Source: Acholeplasma sp. | GTDB lineage: Bacteria > Bacillota_I > Bacilli_A > Acholeplasmatales > UBA5453 | Direction of reading: 5' to 3' | Assembly (NCBI GenBank): GCA_036677365.1 | Contig: JAVBWN010000021.1 | Span: 1-64,000, forward strand | Length of the DNA: 64,000 nucleotides | Part shown: positions 1,433 to 37,905 of the stretch, piece by piece | How positions within the stretch are numbered: position 1 is the stretch's first letter | How the letters are laid out: the number at the start of each line of letters is the position of its first letter | Translations under genes and position numbers: made by a program | Notes under the pieces: generated by a model | Told to the model about the DNA's origin: nothing | Databases searched by the model: none | What the model saw: only the letters and a program-made list of their open reading frames with translations

Positions 1433-1574
1433 AAATTGTTACGCACACCGATTATAGAGGTAAAACCATCCAATGCGGTGGTTTTTTTCTTGTGACAATG
1501 TGGTGACAATTTCATAATTATATTTAAATATTTTAAATAATATGTTAAAGTATCGTTGAAAGGGTGTGTTTTTA

Positions 1575-2078
1575 ATGAAAAAGGTATACTCCTTAATTGG
1601 ATTATTGATGATTGTACTATCATTTCGTTCAACTACAAGCGCTATGCAAGCCCCCTATATCGATGCTTTCATCGATTATGAAGCTTTCTTAAACGGGGTT
1701 GAGTATTACTTAGGCGATACCTATTATTTTGAACCGAATGAGATTGACTTGCATGAAGATTATTATGTGAGTTATCAAATTAAACATGACGCATACAACC
1801 GAAAATCATTCAATATGGGTGGGAACCCATTGTTTATTTACCAAAGTAAAGATAAGCGTAATGATTACCATTTTGAATTACATCTAAAAATGAAGCCTGG
1901 ACAAGAAGCCATGATGCGATCTTCAAGTTCAGGTAGTTTTCATGTGTTACAAGGCGAGAATAACAGTTATGTTCAAATCAGAATCCTCAATGATACCCCA
2001 TTGCCAGAGAGCGAAATTGAAAAAATATTCCAGTTCATTTGTACAATATATAGTAAAACTTGGACGGTGAGTTCATGA
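1575..2078 (+). CDS. Hypothetical exported protein
   Basis: ATG at 1575 after AAGGGTG; MKK plus hydrophobic stretch and A-x-A-like cleavage region; no family recognised. Confidence 0.6.
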   Translation: MKKVYSLIGLLMIVLSFRSTTSAMQAPYIDAFIDYEAFLNGVEYYLGDTYYFEPNEIDLHEDYYVSYQIKHDAYNRKSFNMGGNPLFIYQSKDKRNDYHFELHLKMKPGQEAMMRSSSSGSFHVLQGENNSYVQIRILNDTPLPESEIEKIFQFICTIYSKTWTVSS

Positions 2079-2641
2079 GAAATCTTATGATATTAATGAT
2101 GGTTTTATCCATCAGTTTGAACAGTTGTTTTGCAAATATACGTAATTCATACACTTATAGTAAAACATTTCGTTCGATGGCATTGTTGTATGAAGCACTG
2201 GAAAAAGACGATGAAATCATCATCCTTCGTTTAGAACTCAATCCTGGTGAAACTCAGGATTATCCTGCCACCATTCAATACCATTCAGACACCGATGCGA
2301 TTTATGAATATGAATATAGAACCGAACACAAAGGCCTAACCTACAGAAGTTATGTACGAATGACCCGCGAAGAATCGAGAACTTCAGGTGGCGCATTATT
2401 TAGAGGGGAAATCATCGATGAAGAAATTATCCATGAAGATTTGATCATCCGAACCCATCTTAGACCAGCCTCAAAGTATAATGGACCATTGACGTTTACC
2501 GTTAACTGTTACTTCAAGTTAAATGGCATTGGGTATTATGGCGAGATTGTTCACGTCAATGAAATATCAGAAAACTTTGACAAAAAAGTATTTATCGACT
2601 ATATTATAGAATTGTATGAAGTCAATAAAACCGTTGCTTAG
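2075..2641 (+). CDS. Hypothetical exported protein (possible lipoprotein)
   Basis: ATGA overlap with the upstream stop at 2075-2078; N-terminal hydrophobic stretch ending in LNSC; no family recognised. Confidence 0.6.
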   Translation: MRNLMILMMVLSISLNSCFANIRNSYTYSKTFRSMALLYEALEKDDEIIILRLELNPGETQDYPATIQYHSDTDAIYEYEYRTEHKGLTYRSYVRMTREESRTSGGALFRGEIIDEEIIHEDLIIRTHLRPASKYNGPLTFTVNCYFKLNGIGYYGEIVHVNEISENFDKKVFIDYIIELYEVNKTVA

Positions 2642-2649
2642 GGAGAAGT

Positions 2650-3591
2650 ATGCATAATCCATATTTAGATCACGTTTCTAAAACACTGAAAGAAAAATTC
2701 AAAGTGGATGTCGTTGAAGACATTCTTTTGGTGCGTAAAGACCGTGTCATCTTGTATGGTGAGAATAATCTATCTGAAGACAATGTCCTTTATGTTATCA
2801 CAGGGTCATTGAAATTAATCGGATTTGAGGAATCAGCAACCATTCGCTTAACTGACATACTCAAAAGATTCGAATTCAATAACGCCTATTCAGATGTGGC
2901 AGGCAAAACGGAGTATTATAGTTATGTGTATGGCGAACTATTCAATCAGAGACCACACACGAGTGTGACACTGCCCATCTTAAATAATGGCGAACGTATA
3001 TGGATTACGATTGCTCGATTCGTGGTCGATGCGAACCCTGCACTGGCTGCTTATTTCATCACCAATGTGAGTGATGTCATGTTGGGTGAAGAACAAAACT
3101 ATGCAAAAACACACCGTGATTCGCTAACGGGCCTGTTCAATAAATATACCCTAGATTTTCATTATGGTAAACGGTATAACAACCCCGATTTTCATGTGAT
3201 GTATTTAGACATCGATAACTTCAAAGAAGTCAATGACAGCGATGGACACATGGCTGGTGACCAATGTTTGGTTGCTTTTTCGAATATTTTAAAAAGCTAT
3301 GCCAACGAATTGAACCATTTTTATCGAAATGGGGGCGATGAGTTTGTAGGTCTATTGTTTGGCAAAGAAACGGATATCAGACGGATGGCAGAAGAAATAT
3401 TGATTCAAGTCAGAAGCATCAAATCACCATTATCCCAAACCCCATTGTCTGTTTCCATCGGTATTGTTCAAGCGAGAATGCGTCAAGATGTGATTCGTAA
3501 AGCCGATATGTTGTTATATAAAGCCAAACGTATGGGTAAGAATCAATATATTTATGAAATTGAAAAAACCAGACAACATGAAGAGGACTAA
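2650..3591 (+). CDS. GGDEF-domain diguanylate cyclase with PAS-like N-terminal region
   Basis: DSLTGLFNK, LDIDNFKEVND..GH..GD, intact RNGGDEF, SVSIG, AD..LY.AK..GKN. Confidence 0.92.
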   Translation: MHNPYLDHVSKTLKEKFKVDVVEDILLVRKDRVILYGENNLSEDNVLYVITGSLKLIGFEESATIRLTDILKRFEFNNAYSDVAGKTEYYSYVYGELFNQRPHTSVTLPILNNGERIWITIARFVVDANPALAAYFITNVSDVMLGEEQNYAKTHRDSLTGLFNKYTLDFHYGKRYNNPDFHVMYLDIDNFKEVNDSDGHMAGDQCLVAFSNILKSYANELNHFYRNGGDEFVGLLFGKETDIRRMAEEILIQVRSIKSPLSQTPLSVSIGIVQARMRQDVIRKADMLLYKAKRMGKNQYIYEIEKTRQHEED

Positions 3592-4543: not shown

Positions 4544-4644
4544 GCCAAAATGTCGTAAATTTATGGGTAAATGTGTGTTTATCGGCTTAGATTGTGGGGG
4601 TATTGACTGATTTTATGAATTATTAAGTAATTGTTAACATCGAT

Positions 4645-4674
4645 TTGACGGTTTTTTTCTAAAGATGGTATAAT
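4645..4674 (+). promoter_or_regulatory. Sigma70/SigA-type promoter of the fibre operon
   Basis: TTGACG (4645-4650), 18 bp spacer, extended -10 TGnTATAAT (TATAAT 4669-4674). Confidence 0.75.
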
Positions 4675-4730
4675 TTAAGCATCCAAATTAGGCTTAACAT
4701 AGTTAAGTGAAAAGCGAAAGGAGCAGCCAC

Positions 4731-5375
4731 ATGAATCATAAGTCGATGAGTGTTACAATCATCATGTTCATATTGTCATTGTTGGTTTTTTCTGCATCCT
4801 CTTTCGCATGGTTTGCTTTATCGGATTCTTCACGTGTCAATGAGTTTGTGGTTCCGGTCAATAATTATGAAGCTGAAATTATTTTCCAAGTCAGCAAGAA
4901 TGGCGGTTCATACACGACCATCACTACGGAAGCACAAATGACGGCGTTCTTGAATAACAGCTTACCAGGGGATTTATTTGAGTTCATCGTGACCATTGAA
5001 AATCTTTCGACCTCCTCCGTGGTTGCGAGTATATACTTTAATGACATTACAAGCAGTAACCCAAATGCAGGTTACGACATGCGTAATGTTTTTTACCTTG
5101 TTGATGGCGTTGTGGTTGTGAATGCTTCCAACAACAACCTACCGCTCAATTCAACGACACCTGTGACTTTTGAGGGACAAACCTTCTCAAATTATCGTTT
5201 GTCTAATTTGATCGATGCTTCTCAAGACATCACCATCATCACCAATGTCAACATTCCAATCAGTCAAATTGTATTCATTGAGTTTGCGATTCAATTTGAT
5301 CCCAATACATCTAAACAAGAATACCAAGCAGGCATCCTTAGCATCGCATCCTTGCTTGCTGTATTCGATGCTTAG
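4731..5375 (+). CDS. SipW-type signal peptide protein, TasA/camelysin-like subunit 1
   Basis: AAAGGAG RBS before ATG 4731; hydrophobic N-terminus ending SSFAWF; LPGD..F.VTIEN.S motif; beta-rich with no C-terminal anchor. Confidence 0.72.
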   Translation: MNHKSMSVTIIMFILSLLVFSASSFAWFALSDSSRVNEFVVPVNNYEAEIIFQVSKNGGSYTTITTEAQMTAFLNNSLPGDLFEFIVTIENLSTSSVVASIYFNDITSSNPNAGYDMRNVFYLVDGVVVVNASNNNLPLNSTTPVTFEGQTFSNYRLSNLIDASQDITIITNVNIPISQIVFIEFAIQFDPNTSKQEYQAGILSIASLLAVFDA

Positions 5376-5380
5376 GAGGG

Positions 5381-5968
5381 ATGAACATGACTAAACGACT
5401 CTTAGGTTTAACCGTCAGTATGGTGCTAACTTTGATTTTACTTGCGACTACCGTGTATGCGTATTATTTTGACCGTAAAGAAACTGGTAGTGTCGATTTG
5501 ACACTAGGTGAAGTGTCCTTCACTTGGACAGGTGCGTTTGTTACAGACTTTGTGATGCCAGCACAAGAACTGATCGATACCCCATTTACCTTAAATAACC
5601 AATCTACCGTTGAAACCGAATTACGATTCAGCGTCGTTGCATCCACCTCTTTATTGGGCACGGTGGATTTAGAAGATATCTTTACTGTATACGAGTTTGA
5701 TGCCGATTGGGTATTAGAATCGGATGGATATTATTATTACCGCGGTACAAATACCGATTCAACCTCTGAACCAGGTAAGTATAAAATCCCTACAAACGTC
5801 TTACAAATTCCGGTTTTACTATCACTCAAATTGGATGGCTATGTCATCAGAAATGAACATGTTGGACAAACCGTGACTTTATCATTAACTTTCCAAGCCA
5901 AACAAGGCCCATTCATCGATTGGGCAACCTTAGGCTCGACCAATTACGATTTTTCTACGGGACAATAA
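5381..5968 (+). CDS. SipW-type signal peptide protein, TasA/camelysin-like subunit 2
   Basis: Signal ending TTVYAYY, then ...LTLGEV; VMPAQ...FTLNNQSTVETELRF, W....DGYYYY, terminal strand LTFQAKQ. Confidence 0.75.
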   Translation: MNMTKRLLGLTVSMVLTLILLATTVYAYYFDRKETGSVDLTLGEVSFTWTGAFVTDFVMPAQELIDTPFTLNNQSTVETELRFSVVASTSLLGTVDLEDIFTVYEFDADWVLESDGYYYYRGTNTDSTSEPGKYKIPTNVLQIPVLLSLKLDGYVIRNEHVGQTVTLSLTFQAKQGPFIDWATLGSTNYDFSTGQ

Positions 5969-5995
5969 CCCGTTTAACCCAAAGGGGGTGAGGCC

Positions 5996-6565
5996 ATGAA
6001 CAAAATAAGATTTATCGAAAGCATTATGATTTTGATCATGGTGCTTGCATTATTAACCACGGGTATATTCGCATGGATCATTGCGCGTTTTCAATCAGAA
6101 CCGGTCATATTTACCAGCGGATCAATCACTGTGGATGCACAACTTTATACCGCCAATGATGCCAATAAAGATGGTATTTTAGACGGTGGTTATACCGAAA
6201 TCACCAGTGCTGGGATTGATTTTACGAATTTGATGCCTGGGCAAGTATATACGTTTAGATTGATCATTGAAAATACGGGTACTGCACCAGGACACTTGGA
6301 CATTACAGTTAAAGACATTCTACCATCCAACCTAGCCTTATTTAACTTACTGACGGTGGATTTCATTCACCCGACCACATTGGTCAATACCAGTTTAGAT
6401 TTAAATAGCACCGAAGTCGTATTCTTTTCTAACTACGTGCTCGATTTTGAAGGCACACTCACATTTGATTTTACCATTCAAATTGAACCAGAAATCAACA
6501 ACACACTTCACAGTGAGTCGATCACAATAGGTTACTTTGAAGTACGCTTAGATCAAATACCATAA
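5996..6565 (+). CDS. SipW-type signal peptide protein, TasA/camelysin-like subunit 3
   Basis: Signal ending TGIFAW, then FTSGSITV; NLMPGQVYTFRLIIENTG closely follows the TasA/CalY N.L.PGD....F.I.N.G pattern. Confidence 0.8.
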   Translation: MNKIRFIESIMILIMVLALLTTGIFAWIIARFQSEPVIFTSGSITVDAQLYTANDANKDGILDGGYTEITSAGIDFTNLMPGQVYTFRLIIENTGTAPGHLDITVKDILPSNLALFNLLTVDFIHPTTLVNTSLDLNSTEVVFFSNYVLDFEGTLTFDFTIQIEPEINNTLHSESITIGYFEVRLDQIP

Positions 6566-6586
6566 CACCCAAAGGAGGTTAACAGG

Positions 6587-7294
6587 ATGAAAAACTTAAC
6601 CAAAATGATTCTAACTTTTGTTTTGTTAGCCTCAGTCGCAGCGATTTCAATTGCGGGATGGTTAACCAATCAAAACAATGATACCGATGATGTTACTATT
6701 GGTGAAGTTAGCGTTGAAATTGTCGCTTATTTTGAATATTATGATGAGTTCAATGTCCTTCAACAAAAAACAACCGATATTGAATATGAATATACAGTCG
6801 ATGGACAAGGTTCTTTCACTAAATTTGGAATTTATCGTGTCAATCTTTCTAACCCGAATGATGCTCAGTTTATTAAAAATCTTCGTGTTAATATCAATGT
6901 TTTAAGCAGTGTGGACTCTTACATGAGGGTAGGGGTATACGAGCAATTGACACTTTCTTATGTGTCAGGTGGTAAGAGTTACGAGGTTGCAATCACACAA
7001 CCAACCAAAATGCCATTCAACTATATGGATGAAGTGGATTTAGTCAACCCTTACTTTTATGATAATCGCGATAACGATGGCTTTTTCTATTACACAAATA
7101 CAATCAAACGAAATCCAGATACTACCCCAAATACAATCACTTTCGTAGCAGATTTTGGTAGTACACCGTTTAATTTGTATGACAGTAGTTACAGTCTTCA
7201 ACTTGGATTTATCATTGAAGCTGTTCAATCGATTGAAGGACCAGTAATCAACTGGAATCTTCCAAATAGACCTTGGGATGACGGAGCGTGGTAG
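6587..7294 (+). CDS. SipW-type signal peptide protein, TasA/camelysin-like subunit 4
   Basis: AAGGAGG RBS; signal ending SIAGWLT, then VTIGEVSV; SSVDSYMRV, DGFFYY, LGFIIEAVQ shared with subunit 2. Confidence 0.72.
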   Translation: MKNLTKMILTFVLLASVAAISIAGWLTNQNNDTDDVTIGEVSVEIVAYFEYYDEFNVLQQKTTDIEYEYTVDGQGSFTKFGIYRVNLSNPNDAQFIKNLRVNINVLSSVDSYMRVGVYEQLTLSYVSGGKSYEVAITQPTKMPFNYMDEVDLVNPYFYDNRDNDGFFYYTNTIKRNPDTTPNTITFVADFGSTPFNLYDSSYSLQLGFIIEAVQSIEGPVINWNLPNRPWDDGAW

Positions 7295-7296
7295 AC

Positions 7297-10200
7297 ATGA
7301 TTAAAAACATCTTTAAAAAATTAATCATCACCTTAATGATGTCCGTATTTGTGTTAGCGGTCTTTTTTGAGATTGCTAAAAGGGTACCCATCACCCCTGG
7401 TTTAGACGATCAAGTCCAAACTTCGGTGTTCAACAATGGTTTTTTTGATACCAATTTAACCAAAGCCAACAAAGCAGAACCGATGGTAACTTTCAGTCAA
7501 ATCCAAACCATCATCGTTACACACATGAATCAATCGTTTTCGACACCAGATGCACGTGATACATCGATGCTAAGTGCCATCTCCACATTGGTAGGAACAA
7601 AGCGAATCGCGATTGAAACGGCAGATGATTTGTATAACTTCTCAACAGCTGTGTCTTGGAATTGGATTAACACCGCCAATTATGCCAACTATTTTTATTA
7701 CAAAACGGTCAGTTATTTGTTAGATCAAGACTATGCATTGGTCTCGGATATCGATTATCGCAATATGAGAGCGAAGACATTCAATCCAATTGGTATCGAT
7801 CTCGATTTACCAATCGATTATGACCCCAATACTCCGGGCGAACAAGACCCGATTTTCCCATTTACAGGTAGTTTCGATGGTCAAGGATTCAGCATTTCAA
7901 ACCTATATGTTTCGGGCTATAGTTATGTCACAGTAGATTATTCATTTGATGGTACTGAACAAAACAGCCAAATTTTTTCATTAATTCAAAGTTACTCGAT
8001 GTTCGCTTTAATTGGCGAAACTGGGGTGGTAAAAAACTTGACGGTCAGAAATCCAAACTTTGAATTGTTGGATGCACCTGAAGGTTTAACCAAAGCAGCG
8101 ATGTTCGTTGGTACGAACCACGGGACAATTTACAATGTTTCTGTGATTGATACCAAAACCAATGCACAAGGTGCTTCGATTGCAGGGATTCGTTTCAATG
8201 TTTTATTTGTCCAAGCAGGCACCACCTTTACCGCGGCCGGTTTCGCACATACCAATGCGGCCACAGGTAAAATTTACAATTCATTCTTCATCAGCGATAA
8301 AGTCATGGCCGATGGTTCACGTTCAAGATTCAATGTACGTCCATTTGTTTATACCAACAGTGGTACCATCTCGGGTGTCGCTTATGATCAATTACTCATT
8401 CCAAATGTGGATTCAACCACATTACCTCAAAGTTTCCCCAATTACACACAAGCACAATTTAGAAGTGGTACAGCTTCGGGGTCACCAATTTCAATCAACA
8501 ATACCAACCTTCAAACATTGTATGGTGAAACTCGTCAATGGAATTACTATGTTCAAGATGGGTTCCCGATATTATTTAAACTTACCTATGTTTCAGGGGC
8601 ATTTGAAATTGCGAATGAAATGGATTTAATCGCATTCAATAAACTCATTAACTACAACACCCCATACAACGGGATTACTTATGACACACACAACTATCGT
8701 TTAACCGATGACGTTGATATGAGAAACATCAAAGGGTATGTTACGCCTACCAAAGAGTTCAAGGGCACGTTTAGTGGTGGGACCAGTGAGTTTTCAAGTT
8801 CAAGTACCAATACCAACAAATATATCTACAATATGACCATAGATAAACCGGTCATCATTGGTAATAACTACTATATGGGCTTATTCAGTATATTGAGTGG
8901 TACTGTTCGTAACATCAATTTGATGAATAATCAAATGAATCTTACCCTCACTGCGGATAACTATGGTCGTACATTCAATGTTGGTTCAATCGCAGGTGTA
9001 TCCACAGGAACGATTCGAAATATCGTCAGCGATACAGATATCCAAACAGGCACAGCCGCCATTGGTAGAAGTTTTATCGGTGGGATTGCAGGGTCAGCAC
9101 AAGGGTCTGTAACCTATGTAGCCAATCTAGGTATCATCGATGGTAATGCACACAACTTCAATAATTTAACCATCAATGGTTTGTTTTCCATCGGTGGTAT
9201 CCTAGGGTCAACCACTGGCACAACATTGATTTTAACCAACAGCATCAACTTGGGTGAAATCCGTGGCATTGGGTTAGCATCCGGTAGCCAATTTAACGTA
9301 GCTGTGGGTAGTTCGATTCAAAATCGCGTGGGCGGAATCATTGGTGAAGTAACCAATACTGCAAGCACCAACCACTCATTTTATTATGTTACAAACGAGG
9401 GTAAAGTTGCTGCCAATGATTTCACAGGAAAATCAGGTGGCACCGTTCAAAACTTCATTGGCGGTATTTTTGGTGAGGTTCAAGGCTTGGCTTTCCAAAT
9501 CACCAATCCAACCAATCCAATCACATTTAGAAATGGTCGTTGGCAAAATAAAGGGATCATTGAAGCCAACCACATCAACACCTTTACCACCACCAACAGC
9601 GCTGGCATTGGGGTAGTATCAACGACAACCACCAAGGCTGAGTTTACTTATATGACCAACAGTGGTGGATTCAATTTCCCAAATTTGAATTATCAAAATC
9701 ACAATACGTATGTCTTTTATTCAGCAACCATCTTAGATAATTCCACGGGTGGTGTAAAATTATCGCGTGCTTATAATACAGCGAATTTTACATTTGGTCC
9801 TTCGTATTTTAACAATACATCCGGTATCACAGTAACTACGATTAGAATCGCACCTTTCTTTGTTTCGAAAAATAGTATGGACAAAGACCTTTTATTTGTT
9901 GAAAACAAGGGTCAGATCTTAGTGGGTAGTATTTCAGCAACCACATCCAACGTCGCTGTTGAGTTAGAGGTCGCTGGTATCACCTTATCCAATAATGTAT
10001 ATTATAATAACGTTATCAATAGTGGTGACATTCGCTTATTAAGACTCAATCAATCCGCTGAAGTCTGGGTATCGGGTATCTCAAAGAGATTATCTTATAA
10101 TTCGACTTTAAACGATGAATATACAATGAAAAATTCCATCAATAAAGGTGCCATTGTTACGGCATTGATTTCTGGAAATACTGCAGTTTCAGGAACTAGT

Positions 10201-13200
10201 AGCAATGGTGTTTATAGCAGTACCATCACCAATCGAAATGTATATGTGAGTGGCCTTGTCAATGTCAATAGTGGTGAAATGACCAATGTCTTCAACTCAG
10301 GGACATTATCATCCACAGATATTGGCGGAACTGGAATTCAGCATATCACAGGTAGTGCTAATGTATACGCAGGTGGTGTCGCAACATTTAACTATAATTT
10401 AATTCAAGATGCTGCCAATACTGGTTCACTAAACTATACAAGTACAACAACTGCTGCAACTTCATTGGTCGCAGGTACCACAGACTTATTTGGTGGGATG
10501 GTTTATGCTTTTGATGGTGGACTCGTTTTAGGTGGTGTCGTCGCTGCTTTTGGTGATAACGCCGCATCTATTTTATCTGGACATGGTCAAAATACAGGTA
10601 TGATAGCAAAACTCATCGACTCATCTAATAATGGTGATGTTTATGCAAAAGCACCACAATTTGCTAGAGCAGGTGGTGTATTAGGTATCGCATTAGGTAC
10701 TGAAGTTACAGCAGGTACAGACACTGCCACCAGTAACACAGGTGTGATTAAAAAATTTGCTACCAATACAACAGGTGCTGGTGACCCTGTCGCAAACTCA
10801 ATTTTATCTAACGGATTAAACTTTGGTAATATTTATGCTTTTACAAACCTTAGAGGGGAATATACAGGTATTGATCAACGATTAGGTATCTATTCTGCTG
10901 CAGGTGGTGTAATCGCCTATGGACTATGTAAAATGACTCGTATGTTAAACCACGGGAAAATATCGTCAAATGACGTTGCAGGCGGTATCATAGGTGCTAC
11001 CTATATTTTTGGACGTGCTGATGCGAATGGTACGATGCCAGTAACCAATGTGGATATCGATACAGCTGTTCATTATGGTCAAGTAGAAGCATTTATCCAA
11101 ACACAATACACGAACGCTACTTTCGATGGTAGAAATACAACAACTTTATACTATACTGGGTCAAGTAGAACATCATTCTTATTTGGTTCAAATACATCTA
11201 TTAGTATGGGTACAAAACCAGGATATGGTGGCATTTTCGGCAGATTCCAACGTGGTTCTTATGGTGTCATGCAATCCTCAACATTTAAAAATATCTTAAA
11301 TATGGACCAAAATATCGATATGGTTGGCCGTGCTGACCAAACGTCTGTTGGGAGTTTCTTCTTTTATCGATTTGGTCAAAAAGGTGTTCAAGATACTTTC
11401 TATTCTGCAAGAACAGGAGATACCTCACCTGCAGTAATTGTGGGATTTAATGAGGTATTAAGGACATTTAGAGTAACTACAAATAATAGCTCTAGAATTA
11501 CCATTAGAAGAGAATGGATTGCATCAAAACAGCAGTACGTTTACAAAGTAATCTTGGTTGAAATACGTGGTTCTGGAACAATAACATCAGACACAGGTAG
11601 GTTAATTGGAGAATATTTACCGGTGTCAAATTATTCATATGCGGATTTGCAGTTTGATAGATTGATTTCAAATTTAACTCAAGGATCATCTACAACATTT
11701 AGTTATGGTACTTTAACTAATATTTCTCCATCATCTGGGACAACATATGAACGTGGAATCCGATATGAATATGAAGATTTAGGCATAACAGAAGCACAAG
11801 TCTTAACTTTATTTAGTGGAGATACCGGCACCTCTGTAACAAGAACGCTTTTAACAACAAATCCGTTCAATGTTACTGTAAGAGTATATCAAAATCCAGT
11901 ACAAACTGCATTCAACTTCCCTAAAGTTCAAGATTTAACTGCTGGAGATTCAGGGTATGATCCATCTAAATTATACATTTTTGATCCGACATTCCCGTTA
12001 ATGAATCCATCACAATCAGACTTTATCTATAGAGTAACCAAAGAGGTTCTTGCCGATCGATTTAGATTGGCAGCAGATCCATTGTTTAAAAATGGTATGT
12101 ATGTCCTCGCATCTTCCAAAGGACGAGAGGCCGGGGCCGTTTTACCAGCCAACTTATCCATCAATAATTTCTATGGTTTGAAAGAACCAGACACCCCAGT
12201 TTATTACAATCTAGATAGTATTTCTGTAAGCAACCTCAACGTACCCTCGGTTGTAGATTTACCGACAGACCCGCTATATCTATCTTATAGCTCGATGTTC
12301 CAAGTACGTAAGAGCGATAAATCCTTGGTATTGCCAAAACAAGATCAACCAACGATAGGGGACTTGGTACTATATGACCCAACTGGTCAAAGTCCGACAT
12401 TAGAGGGTGGTATTATCAATAATACAGCTCGAACTATCGTGTTTAATGTGTCTCAATCCGCATTCCCAAGCAGTACAGTTACTTATGAAGCTTTACAAGC
12501 GACCCTCTCAGAAAACGCGGTCATCGCGGTATCCGGGATTACTTCAGGTACGCATGCAGGATTCAAAACCGCTTATAATGCGAGAACTACCAATATTTTA
12601 GGCGGCGCTTATAAGTTCACACACACAGGCACCTTTAATGGTAGCAATCAAGTCATATTCACGATGACTGTGTATTCTGAAGTTGCTGCCGATGATCCTA
12701 ACCTTGTGACGACTTATAAGACCGATTATACGGTTACCATCAATCGAATTGCCCAAAACTTGAACGTCACTTTGAATCAAATCTTGATGAATTCGACCAA
12801 TGTGACGCCATTACCAAGTTTGGTTGGGTCAACTTATACCGTTTCACCGTCATTCCCACTCTCACCTAGTGGTACCATCACGGTAAGATTCATTGATAAC
12901 AATACCCAATTACCACTTGGGCACAATTTAACCATCCATAGATTAACCAAGGATGGCGATACCGTAGATTCAGCGTATTACAATTTGACACTCACGCCAA
13001 AAGCATCCAACAACATATTTGGGTTTGCTATGACGTTGAGCGATGAACTCGAAAGCGGTGTTTACCGCATCGTGTTCAGCTATTATAACAGTTCGACACA
13101 GTTCAATATGGACTTTACAAAGCAAGCATCCTCGAACCGATTGATTACCAGTGTGTCTTATAGCACCTACAGTGCGGACGCTTCTGGTGGATTGATTTTC

Positions 13201-14916
13201 ACTCCAACCGGAACCAATTTCACCACATTCATCGAATTTGGTGAAATCCTCGAAGGTGTCTTGTTAAATACCAATCGAAGCATGGTTGTTACCCCAGTAT
13301 CCAATGGGTCATCACTCAATTATGTGAACACTTTGGATTATGTTCAACTCACTTTAGATGGCAATACATTGATGATCCTTAGAGTTTCTCCGTTTGCTTC
13401 AATCACAGCAGCTACCGTTCGTTATCAATATGGTGGTGATGGTAGAAAAAGTTACATTTTCAATTACACGATTGTCAACGAATTGAATCAATCGACTGTA
13501 ATCACACACACCGTTACTGAAAGACAGTTATCGAATTTTATTGTTTATAAGGACGGTAACCAGCAATTTGCATACCCTGTCCAAGTAACCAGAGAAGCAT
13601 TAACCACCAACATTCAAATTGACTTTAGACTTCAAGATGTGACTTTATATGATAACATTACGACTGTCATTACCGACACAAATGGTGTATTCGTACCAAC
13701 CGAAAGTCAAATCACATTCTTCATTGATGATGGGTATGCAATGATCATCACATTCGAGTTGGGTGTAGGTGAAAAGACTTATGCATTCACCTTAAACCGT
13801 GAAGGCAGTGTTACCTACAACTTGGGTAGTGTTGTCATTCGTAAAAACTTGGGGGTCAGTGCTTATCTAAACGATATCCGATTCCAAATCAACAGTGATA
13901 TCACCCTGAAATACCCGACGATTTATCAAATTAACTCAGATGGTTCAACGGTCACACCAAGTGATTATGACCCACGTGTGTTCTTTGAAGGCATCGATTA
14001 TGATGGTGCGGACACTGCAGGTGTGCAATATTTCCGAATCAATGGCGAAGTATCCGATATTGACTTATCCAATTATTATCCAGATTTCACTTTACCAATT
14101 GGGGCCATCATTCAAAGACAAGTTGGTCCAAACAGCTGGTCAAATGATTTATCTGGTAACTTTACAAGTGAAGTTGAAGATGTCAACACTGTGGTGCGTT
14201 ACCGTATTTTGTCGGAACAAACCAACGCGAACAACCCTGGTGTACTCACAGACATTGTCGATTCAACGATTGTCTACTATGATTTGACAGTCATTGATAT
14301 CTTGTATAACTTAACCATTCGCTTTACGCTATTCTACCGATTTGGCAATGGTACGATTGTACCTGCTGGGGATCCAACCTCACCAATCAAAAACAGTGTC
14401 ATATTGATCATAGTTAAGAATTATGAAACAGAAGAGACATTTACTCCAACCATCAGTATTGACCCTGTCACGGGTAGAATCATTTATCCATTTGAAGGTG
14501 GCATTATCAGTTATACCGCTGGGGTAAGAAACCAATCTACTTTATTCTATTACCCATTACCAGCCAATATCACAGATTATTTGTACACCTTTGGTAAAAA
14601 TAAGACCGGAGTATACAACTTCTCGATTGTTAGCCCTAAATACACTGGGGTAACCACCGGTAATCTGGTCAATGGTTTGCGTTATGATTACAATATTTAC
14701 TTGCGTACGGGCGTAACTGGCAGCGGTACATACCCATGGAATGACGATAAGTATAAACTCCCTGTGTTTGATAACACTGGTGAAATCATTGGTAAATACT
14801 ATTATGTTTTGGGTACGAACCGTCAAATCATTCGTGAGTTCGCGATTGTCATCGAAGAAAGTACGTTAGGTAGCCAATGGGGTCTATACGACGACTATAC
14901 CAGTTGGGATAATTAA
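7297..14916 (+). CDS. Giant secreted/surface protein (~2539 aa) with GLUG-like beta-helix repeats and C-terminal beta-sandwich domains; putative adhesin
   Basis: N-terminal hydrophobic helix; two IxxxxDL / Y.L..D[IV]D / F.G.F.G modules; many [VIA]GG[IV].G and N.G repeats; Thr/Asn/Ser/Gly-rich; YTVTINR-type Ig-like strands; no C-terminal TM or LPXTG. ATG 7297 follows GGAG (track start is GTG 7288). Confidence 0.75.
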   Translation: MIKNIFKKLIITLMMSVFVLAVFFEIAKRVPITPGLDDQVQTSVFNNGFFDTNLTKANKAEPMVTFSQIQTIIVTHMNQSFSTPDARDTSMLSAISTLVGTKRIAIETADDLYNFSTAVSWNWINTANYANYFYYKTVSYLLDQDYALVSDIDYRNMRAKTFNPIGIDLDLPIDYDPNTPGEQDPIFPFTGSFDGQGFSISNLYVSGYSYVTVDYSFDGTEQNSQIFSLIQSYSMFALIGETGVVKNLTVRNPNFELLDAPEGLTKAAMFVGTNHGTIYNVSVIDTKTNAQGASIAGIRFNVLFVQAGTTFTAAGFAHTNAATGKIYNSFFISDKVMADGSRSRFNVRPFVYTNSGTISGVAYDQLLIPNVDSTTLPQSFPNYTQAQFRSGTASGSPISINNTNLQTLYGETRQWNYYVQDGFPILFKLTYVSGAFEIANEMDLIAFNKLINYNTPYNGITYDTHNYRLTDDVDMRNIKGYVTPTKEFKGTFSGGTSEFSSSSTNTNKYIYNMTIDKPVIIGNNYYMGLFSILSGTVRNINLMNNQMNLTLTADNYGRTFNVGSIAGVSTGTIRNIVSDTDIQTGTAAIGRSFIGGIAGSAQGSVTYVANLGIIDGNAHNFNNLTINGLFSIGGILGSTTGTTLILTNSINLGEIRGIGLASGSQFNVAVGSSIQNRVGGIIGEVTNTASTNHSFYYVTNEGKVAANDFTGKSGGTVQNFIGGIFGEVQGLAFQITNPTNPITFRNGRWQNKGIIEANHINTFTTTNSAGIGVVSTTTTKAEFTYMTNSGGFNFPNLNYQNHNTYVFYSATILDNSTGGVKLSRAYNTANFTFGPSYFNNTSGITVTTIRIAPFFVSKNSMDKDLLFVENKGQILVGSISATTSNVAVELEVAGITLSNNVYYNNVINSGDIRLLRLNQSAEVWVSGISKRLSYNSTLNDEYTMKNSINKGAIVTALISGNTAVSGTSSNGVYSSTITNRNVYVSGLVNVNSGEMTNVFNSGTLSSTDIGGTGIQHITGSANVYAGGVATFNYNLIQDAANTGSLNYTSTTTAATSLVAGTTDLFGGMVYAFDGGLVLGGVVAAFGDNAASILSGHGQNTGMIAKLIDSSNNGDVYAKAPQFARAGGVLGIALGTEVTAGTDTATSNTGVIKKFATNTTGAGDPVANSILSNGLNFGNIYAFTNLRGEYTGIDQRLGIYSAAGGVIAYGLCKMTRMLNHGKISSNDVAGGIIGATYIFGRADANGTMPVTNVDIDTAVHYGQVEAFIQTQYTNATFDGRNTTTLYYTGSSRTSFLFGSNTSISMGTKPGYGGIFGRFQRGSYGVMQSSTFKNILNMDQNIDMVGRADQTSVGSFFFYRFGQKGVQDTFYSARTGDTSPAVIVGFNEVLRTFRVTTNNSSRITIRREWIASKQQYVYKVILVEIRGSGTITSDTGRLIGEYLPVSNYSYADLQFDRLISNLTQGSSTTFSYGTLTNISPSSGTTYERGIRYEYEDLGITEAQVLTLFSGDTGTSVTRTLLTTNPFNVTVRVYQNPVQTAFNFPKVQDLTAGDSGYDPSKLYIFDPTFPLMNPSQSDFIYRVTKEVLADRFRLAADPLFKNGMYVLASSKGREAGAVLPANLSINNFYGLKEPDTPVYYNLDSISVSNLNVPSVVDLPTDPLYLSYSSMFQVRKSDKSLVLPKQDQPTIGDLVLYDPTGQSPTLEGGIINNTARTIVFNVSQSAFPSSTVTYEALQATLSENAVIAVSGITSGTHAGFKTAYNARTTNILGGAYKFTHTGTFNGSNQVIFTMTVYSEVAADDPNLVTTYKTDYTVTINRIAQNLNVTLNQILMNSTNVTPLPSLVGSTYTVSPSFPLSPSGTITVRFIDNNTQLPLGHNLTIHRLTKDGDTVDSAYYNLTLTPKASNNIFGFAMTLSDELESGVYRIVFSYYNSSTQFNMDFTKQASSNRLITSVSYSTYSADASGGLIFTPTGTNFTTFIEFGEILEGVLLNTNRSMVVTPVSNGSSLNYVNTLDYVQLTLDGNTLMILRVSPFASITAATVRYQYGGDGRKSYIFNYTIVNELNQSTVITHTVTERQLSNFIVYKDGNQQFAYPVQVTREALTTNIQIDFRLQDVTLYDNITTVITDTNGVFVPTESQITFFIDDGYAMIITFELGVGEKTYAFTLNREGSVTYNLGSVVIRKNLGVSAYLNDIRFQINSDITLKYPTIYQINSDGSTVTPSDYDPRVFFEGIDYDGADTAGVQYFRINGEVSDIDLSNYYPDFTLPIGAIIQRQVGPNSWSNDLSGNFTSEVEDVNTVVRYRILSEQTNANNPGVLTDIVDSTIVYYDLTVIDILYNLTIRFTLFYRFGNGTIVPAGDPTSPIKNSVILIIVKNYETEETFTPTISIDPVTGRIIYPFEGGIISYTAGVRNQSTLFYYPLPANITDYLYTFGKNKTGVYNFSIVSPKYTGVTTGNLVNGLRYDYNIYLRTGVTGSGTYPWNDDKYKLPVFDNTGEIIGKYYYVLGTNRQIIREFAIVIEESTLGSQWGLYDDYTSWDN

Positions 14917-14923
14917 ATCATTG

Positions 14924-14959
14924 AAAGACATACGACTCAAAAAAGTATGTCTTTTTTTT
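14924..14959 (+). terminator. Intrinsic terminator closing the fibre/adhesin operon
   Basis: AAAGACATAC/GTATGTCTTT stem followed by a T run. Confidence 0.8.
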
Positions 14960-14968
14960 GAATACCTC

Positions 14969-14999
14969 TTGACACATCATACTATGTAATGTATAGTAT
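14969..14999 (+). promoter_or_regulatory. padR promoter with overlapping palindromic operator
   Basis: TTGACA (14969-74), 17 bp, TATAGT (14992-97); perfect inverted repeat ATACTAT-N7-ATAGTAT (14979-14999) overlaps the -10. Confidence 0.75.
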
Positions 15000-15018: not shown

Positions 15019-15324
15019 ATGATGGATCCGCAATTGAAAAAAGGCTTTCTCGAAATTCTCGTTCTCGCTTCATTGAAGGAAGAACCTTCATATGGATACA
15101 AGATCATTCAGGATGTATCATCAATCATCGATATCTCCGAATCGACGTTATACCCCATACTGAAGCGACTTGAACAACAGGCATTCGTTAAAACATACAC
15201 AGAACAACACCAATCTCGATTACGTAAGTACTATATGATTACCACTTTAGGTAAACATGAGATTGAAAAAGCAGAGGCAGATTTTGTTGAAATATCGAAA
15301 ATCTACCGTTATATTTTGAGGTGA
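15019..15324 (+). CDS. PadR family transcriptional regulator
   Basis: QLKKG.LE..VL..L....YGY.I, ESTLYP.L.RLE, RKYY.IT..G. Confidence 0.93.
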   Translation: MMDPQLKKGFLEILVLASLKEEPSYGYKIIQDVSSIIDISESTLYPILKRLEQQAFVKTYTEQHQSRLRKYYMITTLGKHEIEKAEADFVEISKIYRYILR

Positions 15325-15327
15325 CCT

Positions 15328-15870
15328 ATGACAAAATTAGCATTTTTACAAGCATTAAAAGAGGGTTTAGCAACCTACAGTGACGCATCAGAAATTTTAA
15401 ATTATTATGAGGAACTCATCGATGAAGCGGTCGCAAGCGGTGAAATTGAAGCTGAGTTCATTCACAAGTTGGGTAGCGTCGAACAAATCATCCGCACCTT
15501 GAAGAAGGATGCGAACTTTAAGCTGAAAGTCAAAAATCGTGAAAACTACATGCTGCGTGAAGTCATTTCACAAGCATCCAAGGGGATTGCATTATTTTTT
15601 ACAGTCATCGGGGTCATCGTCCTTGGTAGCATCAGCATTTCATTCATTTCGAGTGGTGGGGTATCATTCATCACCTACTTGGTATTTTTATTGACTAAAG
15701 ATGTCTCACGTGTGGAAGTATTGATTTATTATGTGAGTTCGATGGTCTTAGGCATTGGTTTGGTGTTGGTTGGGGTAGTGATCATTACCACACTCATCCG
15801 TAAAACCAAAGTTTGGCTAGATCAAGCCATCATCAAAATTGATCAATTACTTAAAAGGAGACACAAATGA
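15328..15870 (+). CDS. DUF1700/HAAS-domain membrane protein
   Basis: MTK..FL..L...L, EIL.YYEE.IDE....G..E...I.KLG, then TM helices; typical PadR-DUF1700-DUF4097 context. Confidence 0.8.
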   Translation: MTKLAFLQALKEGLATYSDASEILNYYEELIDEAVASGEIEAEFIHKLGSVEQIIRTLKKDANFKLKVKNRENYMLREVISQASKGIALFFTVIGVIVLGSISISFISSGGVSFITYLVFLLTKDVSRVEVLIYYVSSMVLGIGLVLVGVVIITTLIRKTKVWLDQAIIKIDQLLKRRHK

Positions 15871-16748
15871 AAACCATTCTAAAAATCGGTATCATATTCA
15901 TCATATTAGGGGCCATATCTGTAACGGTATTTGGCTTGCTTGCACAACCATATCTCGAAGAACAAATGGTCTTTACAGATCAAAATTTAGACTACGATGG
16001 GGATGCTTTCACAAGAATCGATGTATCATTTTATAATAACCCAGTCGTCATTAAACCCAGTGCCGATGATCAAATTCATATCGACTTTAAAACCGATCAA
16101 TATGAAGAATTGACCATCACCGAAGACAACAACATACTATCCATTGTTGTCACCAGTGATTGGTGGGATTATGTTAAAAATCCACTCCACTGGTTTAGTT
16201 TCAACAACATCACTGTGAATCGTACAGTAACGATTGAATTGCCAAGTGTGCTCTATAACATCACTGTAAGAACTTCAAATGGTGCGATTTCACTCGATGA
16301 TTTGACCTTACAAAGTGCTGTATTACGCACATCCAATGGTCGAATCAACGTCAGAAACGCATCCATTCCAATCTTAACGATGTCCTCTTCCAACGGCAAA
16401 CTCTATTTGAACGATGTCATTTCTACCACCATTGAATTGGCTACTTCCAATGGTGAAATTGAAATGATCGATGTGAATGCAAACGCCATAGACGCTGAAA
16501 CATCCAATGGCCCAATCAATGGTAGTGGGATCATCTCGAATGATTTTAGAGTCAGCACTTCCAATGGTGCAATCGATGTGAGCATTGTCGGGGTATTTGA
16601 AGACTATAAAGTCAAAACAAGAACATCCAATGGCACAGTGAAAATCAATGGTAGTACGTATGGTAACGATACATATCACACCACCAAAACCCCTTATATA
16701 GAAGCCATCACATCCAATGGCAACATCAGAATCCAATTCGAAGACTAG
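15867..16748 (+). CDS. DUF4097 family beta-strand repeat protein
   Basis: N-terminal TM and eight (T/S)SNG.[IVL] repeats. Confidence 0.85.
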   Translation: MKTILKIGIIFIILGAISVTVFGLLAQPYLEEQMVFTDQNLDYDGDAFTRIDVSFYNNPVVIKPSADDQIHIDFKTDQYEELTITEDNNILSIVVTSDWWDYVKNPLHWFSFNNITVNRTVTIELPSVLYNITVRTSNGAISLDDLTLQSAVLRTSNGRINVRNASIPILTMSSSNGKLYLNDVISTTIELATSNGEIEMIDVNANAIDAETSNGPINGSGIISNDFRVSTSNGAIDVSIVGVFEDYKVKTRTSNGTVKINGSTYGNDTYHTTKTPYIEAITSNGNIRIQFED

Positions 16749-27862: not shown

Positions 27863-27875
27863 GTAGCTGAGTTAA

Positions 27876-27983
27876 TACTTCGGGGCAAGGTGAAATTCCT
27901 TGATCGGCGGTAAAGTCCGCGAACCTTTTTGGTTGAACTGGTGCAATTCCAGTACCGACAGTATAGTCTGGATGGGAGAAGAA
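27876..27983 (+). ncRNA. FMN (RFN) riboswitch
   Basis: CTTCGGGGCAAGGTGAAATTCC...CGGCGGTAAAGTCCGCG...CTGGTGCAATTCCAGTACCGACAGTATAGTCTGGATGGGAGAAG matches the RFN consensus; lies upstream of an ECF S component. Confidence 0.95.
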
Positions 27984-28005
27984 AGAGGTTTTTTAGCCTG
28001 TTTTT

Positions 28006-37654: not shown

Positions 37655-37699
37655 ATGGATTATACTTGTAAAAGTCGGGATTTATGATAAAATAGCAAT

Positions 37700-37905
37700 A
37701 GAGCGAAGAACAAGACAAGTAATGAAGGCCAAACCAAAGAGAGATCAGTTAGGTGAAAGTGATCACGGTATTCATGAAGCTACTTGGGAGCGAATGGTAA
37801 ACTGGCCTTAACAGTACAATGAAGGGCTAATCTTTAAGGGTTAGAACTAAGGTGGTACCGCGATTAACATCGTCCTTAGAATGCAAATTCTATGGACTTT
37901 TTTTA
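37700..37905 (+). promoter_or_regulatory. T-box leader (Ala specifier) with terminator
   Basis: AGTA, AGAGA and GGTGAAA stem I motifs; GAA-GCT specifier (GCT 37779-81); T-box AACTAAGGTGGTACCGCG (37845-62); terminator GTCCTTAGAAT/ATTCTATGGAC plus T run (37872-37904). Confidence 0.92.

Follow-up and report, generated by a model that had tools for sequence, protein, structure and literature searches.

Fibres of the TasA type are known as self-assembling matrix polymers of one or two subunits, and the Acholeplasmatales are, to our knowledge, usually regarded as pilus-free. The subject of this study is an operon of five genes, A to E, in a stretch of 64,000 nucleotides from contig JAVBWN010000021.1 of an Acholeplasma sp. 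genome (the window). It encodes four small pilin-like proteins, A to D, and one giant protein, E. Gene content, paralogy, co-occurrence, SipW genes and remote TasA homology were established for this locus, and A to E probably constitute the tip module of a SipW-processed, donor-strand pilus of the TasA superfamily that belongs to a CoCoPALM cluster.

The closest described fibre is that of the Bacillus subtilis TapA-SipW-TasA operon (structures 8AUR and 5OF1; PMC9674648, cited, like the other publications here, for the parts of its text that were available). It has in common with the present locus SipW-type signals, a dedicated SipW, sortase independence, a remote similarity over the donor strand and the last strand and, as predicted here, an accessory protein that gives the first strand. 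TasA requires a complementing strand prior to donating its own (PMC9674648), and aromatic residues at its cleavage site disfavour LepB-type cleavage (PMC10269814). In contrast to the one pilin-like gene of B. subtilis, seven are present here, linked to an McrBC-like GTPase and a cyclic di-GMP (c-di-GMP) riboswitch in a wall-less host. Unlike TapA, the accessory protein E has 2539 aa, carries no N-terminal SipW donor strand and is predicted to dock through its C terminus.

The Clostridium perfringens operon sipW-bsaA-bsaB-bsaC likewise combines SipW with several TasA-like paralogues and a larger adhesin-like gene; heteropolymers have been proposed for such SipW/TasA-like operons, and a base-growth model for BsaA (PMC11580942). 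BsaA locks by N-E-K isopeptide bonds, a possible difference; the C. perfringens operon further differs in BsaC, which is a 70-kDa vWA protein, and in secretion across a wall; no McrBC pair is mentioned in the available text, in which the term AAA had no match. Archaeal AbpA/AbpB (PMC9245690) and TasA-CalY-CapP of B. cereus (PMC13082335) are also donor-strand fibres without peptidoglycan linkage. AbpB was proposed to be both initiator and tip adhesin (PMC9245690), and TasA-CalY heterofilaments occur in B. cereus (PMC13082335). AbpB and TapA use an N-proximal domain, whereas E would use a C-terminal CnaB-like domain, and the archaeal loci are described without a dedicated SipW (PMC9245690). Mollicutes are unnamed in the available text of both surveys (PMC9245690, PMC13082335).

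The genes that surround relatives of the operon correspond to CoCoPALM (Bell et al. 2024, PMC11090510). The common features are an NxD-type McrB GTPase with an N-terminal membrane/coiled-coil part, a DUF2357 partner with a coiled coil, and adjacent signal peptidases. As described in the available text, only SipA-like peptidases are named, and the words TasA, pilin and adhesin had no match in the searched text and supplements of PMC11090510. The CoCoPALM genes lie outside the window, and A to E are an associated structural module. In the searched literature (figures, some supplements and subscription journals were outside its scope), CoCoPALM appeared only in two versions of Bell et al., and neither TasA-type pili in Acholeplasmatales, nor a link between CoCoPALM and TasA, nor a C-terminally docked giant adhesin was described. 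The original prediction that no such system had been described in this order stands for the pilins and the adhesin but not for the surrounding cluster, which had already been named (PMC11090510).

Each of the proteins A to D has exactly one hydrophobic segment, at its N terminus, followed by the motifs SFA↓WF, VYA↓YY, IFA↓WI and IAG↓WL, respectively. These motifs are kept in orthologues, in agreement with the original observation of an A/G-aromatic motif after a hydrophobic N terminus in all four proteins; the conserved pattern consists of a hydrophobic stretch, [AG]↓aromatic and a later G. The P2' residue is aliphatic rather than aromatic in C and D. A genome-wide pattern search for this signal matched 19 of 3212 open reading frames (ORFs), including A to D and the genes Y and Z of contig C8. 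The cleavage motif sits after the hydrophobic segment, unlike in type IV pilin signals, and the class III signal of type IV pili (N_methyl) gave no Pfam match at E ≤ 0.1 among the window proteins. As for the hallmarks of sortase pili, neither LPxTG nor a C-terminal transmembrane segment was found in A to E. With signal peptides removed, HHalign paired A with C (97%), B with D (96%) and B with C (70%), while A-B, A-D and C-D all stayed below 4%; by this signal-free comparison A to D are one paralogous family. Of the further motifs that had been noted as shared pairwise, the terminal F..[QE]A.Q strand can be recognized clearly in B and D; C retains only ..Q of it, and A lacks it. A subunit at a contig end in another locus (L033:1-438) combines a C-like signal and N terminus with a B-like body.

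By sequence and context, A to D are remotely related to the TasA/CalY superfamily, a kinship carried by B. A profile search with the B family matched 702 proteins; the alignment of 143 rows contained B and 142 of the 150 listed proteins, with fragments, long forms and the near-identical P0003 excluded. At E ≤ 0.001, 36 of the 143 matched PF12389 (Peptidase_M73), 17 TIGR04088, 6 the TasA model NF046066 and 2 the BsaA model. The source name of the B orthologue P0025 includes "SipW-like signal peptide". The two top matches of the B-family profile in the PDB were the TasA fibre 8AUR (E 0.021) and the TasA monomer 5OF1 (E 0.027), aligned over the donor strand/G-x-L/PG region and the last strand. 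In the ESM atlas, B adjoins TasA/M73 clusters (0.96), and B alone of the window proteins touches Pfam Peptidase_M73 (E = 0.031). These results support the kinship that had been proposed, which was carried over from B to A, C and D via HHalign. The hidden Markov model searches suggested at the outset for the SipW signal and M73 matched some B homologues (17/143 and 36/143) and left all window proteins below the cut-offs. The model of B is an all-beta sandwich with a predicted local distance difference test (pLDDT) value of 88.8. OspE and OdhA were rejected as chance PDB sequence matches from shallow B and D profiles, and the long B homologues P0171 and P0253, considered as tandem pilins, are not tandem.

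A neighbourhood survey across relatives linked A to E to a sipW/ATPase cluster in other genera. Judged by gene order, A to E belong to a conserved Acholeplasmatales cluster as its distal half; in the window's genus this cluster is split. The full cluster contains GGDEF/EAL genes, a c-di-GMP riboswitch, X-Y-Z, sipW, a McrB-like GTPase, DUF2357, sipW and A-B-C-D-E. It runs uninterrupted as X-Y-Z-sipW-ATPase-DUF2357-sipW-A-B-sipW-C-D-E in L080/L081, L082 and L105, and a cluster may carry as many as three dedicated SipW genes. In the window's genome, contig C8 carries the proximal half, including the two SipW genes, in the order EAL/GGDEF, c-di-GMP-I riboswitch, X-Y-Z-sipW1-McrB-like ATPase-DUF2357-sipW2. 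The two SipW-type peptidases on C8 exceed the TIGR02228 cut-off and are in trans to A to E. A is immediately preceded by a SipW-type gene in all 6 B-containing loci of two other genera, and in the window's genus a Zip gene takes this place in 7 of 8 loci, the eighth being cut. SipW processing, as originally proposed, is supported by these genes.

The McrB-like GTPase (C8:15529-17067) has Walker A, Walker B and N-K-D-D motifs (NF008457, E = 0.0011), and its McrC-like DUF2357 partner is encoded at C8:13471-15516 (PF09823, E = 2e-11). The NxD-type McrB GTPase with an N-terminal membrane/coiled-coil region that characterizes CoCoPALM is thus found at C8, outside the window. In 42 of 44 loci the ATPase is immediately preceded by Z-sipW, and a D-like gene was present downstream in 29 of 44 (within the fetched stretch). 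The ATPase was matched in 150 of the 225 genomes of the order (E ≤ 1e-40, a threshold that includes some other McrB paralogues) and a D-like gene in 100 of 225; genome and locus counts include kin and hence are not independent. Neither gene was found in genus g21 (0/12, genomes of about 0.7 Mb) or genus g29 (0/31). Records named Paracholeplasma or Bacillota metagenome-assembled genome share 92-97% identity with the C8 ATPase, which makes a Paracholeplasma the very likely host; cultured, named carriers include Paracholeplasma vituli and Peloplasma aerotolerans.

A c-di-GMP-I riboswitch precedes X in L020, L081, L082, L084, L093 and L105, and in another family one precedes a split-off A-B-D-E operon (L100:4967-5042). 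The residue at P1 of X is Thr in 27 of 39 sequences, while Z has A↓WF in 47 of 47; Z is duplicated in L084, L093, L105 and L114. The view of the operon as a self-contained system was not upheld: the SipWs, the X-Y-Z subunits and the McrBC-like pair are all on C8, indicating that the shaft subunit is probably outside the window.

Related genes were also found elsewhere. A third TIGR02228 match (contig C2) had no pilin neighbours found, nor had a second, longer McrB-like ATPase with a DUF2357-like partner in the same genome (G000 C12:4792-9083). In L085/L086, L095 and L096, a second CoCoPALM-type ATPase and DUF2357 pair without SipW or pilins lies 3' of a repeat protein (1700 to >3000 aa) and a GGDEF-like gene. 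Tandem duplicate clusters about 15 kb apart occur in L045/L065, L061/L069, L062/L068, L063/L079 and L066/L077; one copy is without DUF2357 and sipW2 and retains the ATPase, pilins and giant gene. A row of genes at L021 (G000 C2:37302-41682) includes an S24/S26-like peptidase (by match), and its other genes are presumably an ABC transporter, an HPr-kinase/PqqD-like gene and a nucleotidyltransferase-like gene.

A D-like ORF was followed by E or another ORF of >1300 aa in all 44 loci examined. An apparent D-E fusion in G086 was rejected, as an in-frame stop had been read through. In L087, L088, L092, L094 and L098, the cluster ends in a single fused protein of 700-770 aa, which consists of a SipW signal, a D-like domain (E = 1.3e-13 in L098), a domain similar to the last domain of E (HHalign 73-84%; controls against D and B <1%) and CBM5/12 repeats. 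Because D-like and E-like domains are fused in these five loci, mature D and E residues 2334-2539 were chosen for modelling. The complex model scored 0.82, compared with 0.01 for the best of three controls; runs agreed in at least 80% of contacts, and partner pLDDT was at least 73. Of the solved pairs, 116 of 157 attain the mark used for the complex score, as do 2 of 215 mismatched ones; these counts are rough for the alignments used. The model supports D-E binding. The tightest (lowest-error) contacts join the D hairpin strand, an insertion relative to B, to residues 94-100 of the E fragment. The interface also takes in the tail of the fragment (194-204) and D residues 15-21 and 181-198, which align with the N-proximal and last strands of TasA. 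From this we infer that the E tail may fill the donor groove of D. Such filling would fit the need of TasA for complementation before it donates its strand (PMC9674648) and the base growth of BsaA, in which the distal subunit has an open groove (PMC11580942).

E has one N-terminal hydrophobic segment and no SipW-type motif, C-terminal anchor, HExxH or LPxTG. Its predicted layout is an N-terminal signal, GLUG-like repeats, a variable middle, an Ig-like stalk and a C-terminal docking domain. Residues 1-500 resemble GLUG and Peptidase_M26_N clusters in the ESM atlas (0.93-0.95; GLUG clusters 0.94-0.95), which, with the length of 2539 aa, supports the giant adhesin of about 2540 aa that had been proposed. 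The repeats NxG[IVL] and GG[IVL]xG extend to about residue 1310, suggesting beta-helices. Residues 1400-1600 are the most variable; compared with L023, identity is 38-58% at 800-1600 and 86-96% in the flanks, as expected of a swappable binding region. Family searches detected no catalytic family in E or six large homologues. The last 206 residues are modelled as a beta-sandwich (pLDDT 74), whose best fold matches were CnaB-type domains of Gram-positive pilins and adhesins with middling Z-scores of 7.6-6.0 (top match Z 7.6, root mean square deviation (rmsd) 3.5, 106 aligned residues). The W of the tail is invariant in 22 of 22 sequences, and some E tails (G-L-T-D) resemble the mature N termini of B and D (W/Y-L-T-D). 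The tip fibrillum FimF-FimG-FimH of type 1 and P pili is also made of ordered minor subunits, with the adhesin attached via its C-terminal domain. It is a works-like analogue with unrelated chaperone-usher machinery; no chaperone or usher is present here, and E seems to supply, not accept, the strand. In L052:15797-20221, a SipW-type signal and a putative donor strand belong to the large terminal protein itself (1475 aa), which is a candidate for an alternative route of tip loading. In L083:6003-13123 (G008), a locus that lacks B, the giant gene is represented by two ORFs, one of 550 aa and one of 1782 aa.

The ORF coordinates confirmed five closely spaced, co-directional genes with intergenic gaps of 5, 27, 21 and 2 bp (Table 1). 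The single promoter of the original prediction ranked first of 61 predicted sites (11/12, TG-extended). The scan by itself is weak (61 sites versus 49.9 in shuffles); the TTG of the -35 element and the TGGTATAATT letters of the -10 element did not vary among the upstream regions aligned for the genus (8 of 8). The single terminator was equally borne out by its hairpin (-13.6 kcal/mol, z -4.5), matched by none of 200 shuffles; a simple terminator scan missed it because its loop is 11 nt. Two upstream sites were recognized: a direct-repeat-like motif that is a possible regulator site (its loose pattern has 53 genome matches) and a palindrome that is a possible operator (10 matches across the genome). 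Contigs from RNA libraries of two studies start at 4702-4708, and one ends at 14927 (weak). Among the 32 of 88 RNA-library pieces shown, the A/B, C/D and D/E junctions were bridged and B/C was not. The contigs cover much of the operon and flanking genes and are consistent with a single transcript. Metagenome runs with the operon came from sediment, sludge, groundwater, soil and plastic; sequencing runs X18-X20 share small numbers of words with it and X21-X24 none. All five genes are under purifying selection (compared with L022, nonsynonymous divergence 0.05-0.09, synonymous divergence saturated).

Table 1. Features of the operon in the window (positions in nucleotides of the stretch)
Feature	Position	Strand	Description
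Direct-repeat-like motif TGTGT...ATTGTG	4572..4596	+	Upstream of promoter; in 6/7 orthologous upstream regions
Sigma-70-type promoter, extended -10	4645..4674	+	11/12 match; core letters invariant in 8/8 aligned regions
Palindrome CTTAAC-ATA-GTTAAG	4693..4707	.	Just past start site; in 5/7 orthologous regions
A	4734..5375	+	Pilin-like subunit, 213 aa from ATG, signal ..SFA↓WF, paralogue of C
B	5381..5968	+	Pilin-like subunit, 195 aa, signal ..VYA↓YY, nearest of the set to TasA/Peptidase_M73
C	5996..6565	+	Pilin-like subunit, 189 aa, signal ..IFA↓WI
D	6587..7294	+	Candidate tip adaptor subunit, 235 aa, signal ..IAG↓WL
D beta-hairpin strand	6971..7006	+	Mature residues 105-116; pairs with E in model; insertion relative to B
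E	7297..14916	+	Adhesin-like secreted protein, 2539 aa
E C-terminal domain	14296..14913	+	Residues 2334-2539, CnaB/prealbumin-like, predicted to dock on D
E conserved tail W-G-L-x-D	14875..14907	+	In modelled interface; candidate donor-strand mimic
Intrinsic terminator	14924..14959	+	Hairpin plus T-run

Upstream of the operon, window positions 1566-2641 encode two small secreted proteins (170 and 193 aa) without family match, which are present in L022 and L023. The gene two places before the operon (2650-3591) encodes a GGDEF protein and is found in L022 as well and probably in L025; this gene may link the split operon to c-di-GMP. After the terminator, PadR, HAAS and DUF4097 genes (15019-16748) have their own promoter (14969-14997). 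An FMN riboswitch (27872-27987) and a T-box leader (37697-37880) in the window are both ordinary.

Neither a penicillin-binding protein (PBP) transpeptidase nor a sortase (PF04203) was found in the genome, which is 99.86% complete. The lone Mur-ligase match was rejected as FolC-like on sequence reading. Among ATPase-bearing genomes outside the order, PBPs were present in 3 of 8, and in one of these three (G542, L105) the cluster is complete, with A, B, D, E and the riboswitch, indicating that the cluster is not a wall-less invention. On this comparison, the cluster withstands the loss of the wall and is not specific to wall-less cells. The original claim that the system needs no peptidoglycan agrees with the lack of PBP and sortase genes, but the same cluster also occurs in the PBP-bearing relative.

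In the favoured explanation, A to D would be exported by Sec and then held by their own signal anchors. Assembly would start when the E tail occupies the open groove of D, the part that TapA plays for TasA. The N-terminal strand of each subunit would insert into the next, membrane-proximal subunit, and SipW would then release it. The subunits would be arranged in the order E-D-C-B-A on a shaft of C8 subunits, of which Z is likely the major one. X is without the A↓W cleavage motif, so it would stay in the membrane as an uncleaved anchor, and no wall would be needed. c-di-GMP would control the C8 half, and the membrane McrBC-like GTPase pair would most likely assist or gate assembly. E would be an exchangeable adhesin at the tip fibrillum, and the fibre would serve surface attachment and biofilm growth.

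Several observations weigh against this explanation. A to D of the window reach no Pfam M73 cut-off and match TIGR04088 in 0 of 4 cases; among 26 orthologues, one D orthologue passed the latter cut-off (20.5 versus 19 bits). No window protein was above the Pfam or NCBIfam cut-offs, and E matched no family. The PDB E-values of 0.02-0.03 are marginal. In three fold searches, no TasA, CalY or AbpA chain was among the matches listed for the model of B, and the best of these (Z 7.2, rmsd 2.7-3.8, 110-142 aligned) were unrelated generic beta-sandwiches; the predicted TasA jelly roll was thus not confirmed, and the absent match leaves a TasA fold possible. The similarity between the last domain of E and the fused domain spans only 26-47 columns, and the lowest-error D-E contacts are those of the hairpin, the model leaving the D partner residues of the E tail unspecified. 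An ordinary signal peptidase I is also encoded in the genome. Mature X, Y and Z showed no HHalign similarity to mature A to D (all <2%), so that a shared fibre of both sets rests on gene order. In the window, L022, L025 and L026, A to E are under their own promoter without a riboswitch, and no Rfam element was found upstream of A in the window. No fibre has been seen, and no report of pili in a cultured carrier was found; in the available text on one such carrier (PMC11122141), pili, fimbria, adhesin and appendage were without match.

The own promoter and terminator, the lack of a riboswitch, the missing similarity to X/Y/Z and the nearness of B to TasA would also suit an operon that builds its own fibre, with the major subunit among A to D and the C8 SipWs acting in trans, independently of X-Y-Z and the GTPase. 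That the operon stands apart from the C8 half in genus g1, and likewise at loci L100-L102 of family f2, points the same way. We regard this as unlikely: clusters have between 2 and 4 A-D-like genes, frequently without B, whereas X-Z-sipW-ATPase is near constant, and A, B, C and D each form a distinct conserved class, as with minor pilins. In addition, the split L100 has the riboswitch type of the proximal halves. It is more improbable still that no long fibre exists and that A to D are membrane-anchored or form a short 1:1:1:1 stalk displaying E. Such a stalk would suffice for a wall-less cell to display an adhesin, and it is consistent with the unseen fibre, the fold searches of B and the aliphatic P2' residues of C and D; it is opposed by the conserved A↓W/Y cleavage motifs, the multiple dedicated SipW genes and the TasA homology.

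Beta-helix-like regions can degrade glycans, and the middle of E is mosaic between close relatives. Together with the McrBC ancestry and CoCoNuT kinship of the GTPase (PMC11090510), this could point to a role in conflict or defence, with the GTPase as a sensor or exporter and E as a secreted enzyme or effector instead of an adhesin. That reading is very improbable, given that no catalytic family was found in E or six large homologues and no HExxH in E, and given the CBM5/12 binding repeats that take the place of E in other clusters, and c-di-GMP control with EAL/GGDEF neighbours, which fits adhesion.

The name CoCoPALM, proposed TasA-type heteropolymers and adhesin-bearing operons are already known, as far as the cited texts go. 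New are the constant position of D 5' of a giant gene (44/44), the modelled D-E docking, and the fused D-like/CBM5/12 proteins elsewhere. The locus would represent a seven-subunit version of TasA-type fibres with a giant tip protein, tied to a restriction-derived GTPase pair and to c-di-GMP in a large part of the order. It would supply a concrete structural product for CoCoPALM, which has been named but not studied, and it suggests a way in which a wall-less cell may anchor a fibre; the D hairpin with the E tail offers a testable docking rule. Quite tentatively, CoCoPALM may be a widespread motor-driven pilus, in which an McrBC restriction motor, put to new use at the membrane, would build or retract a donor-strand TasA-type fibre with an ordered tip of several subunits and exchangeable adhesins that are loaded by a C-terminal donor tail. 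If true, this would be the first pilus in free-living mollicutes and, among TasA-type fibres, the first that is energised.

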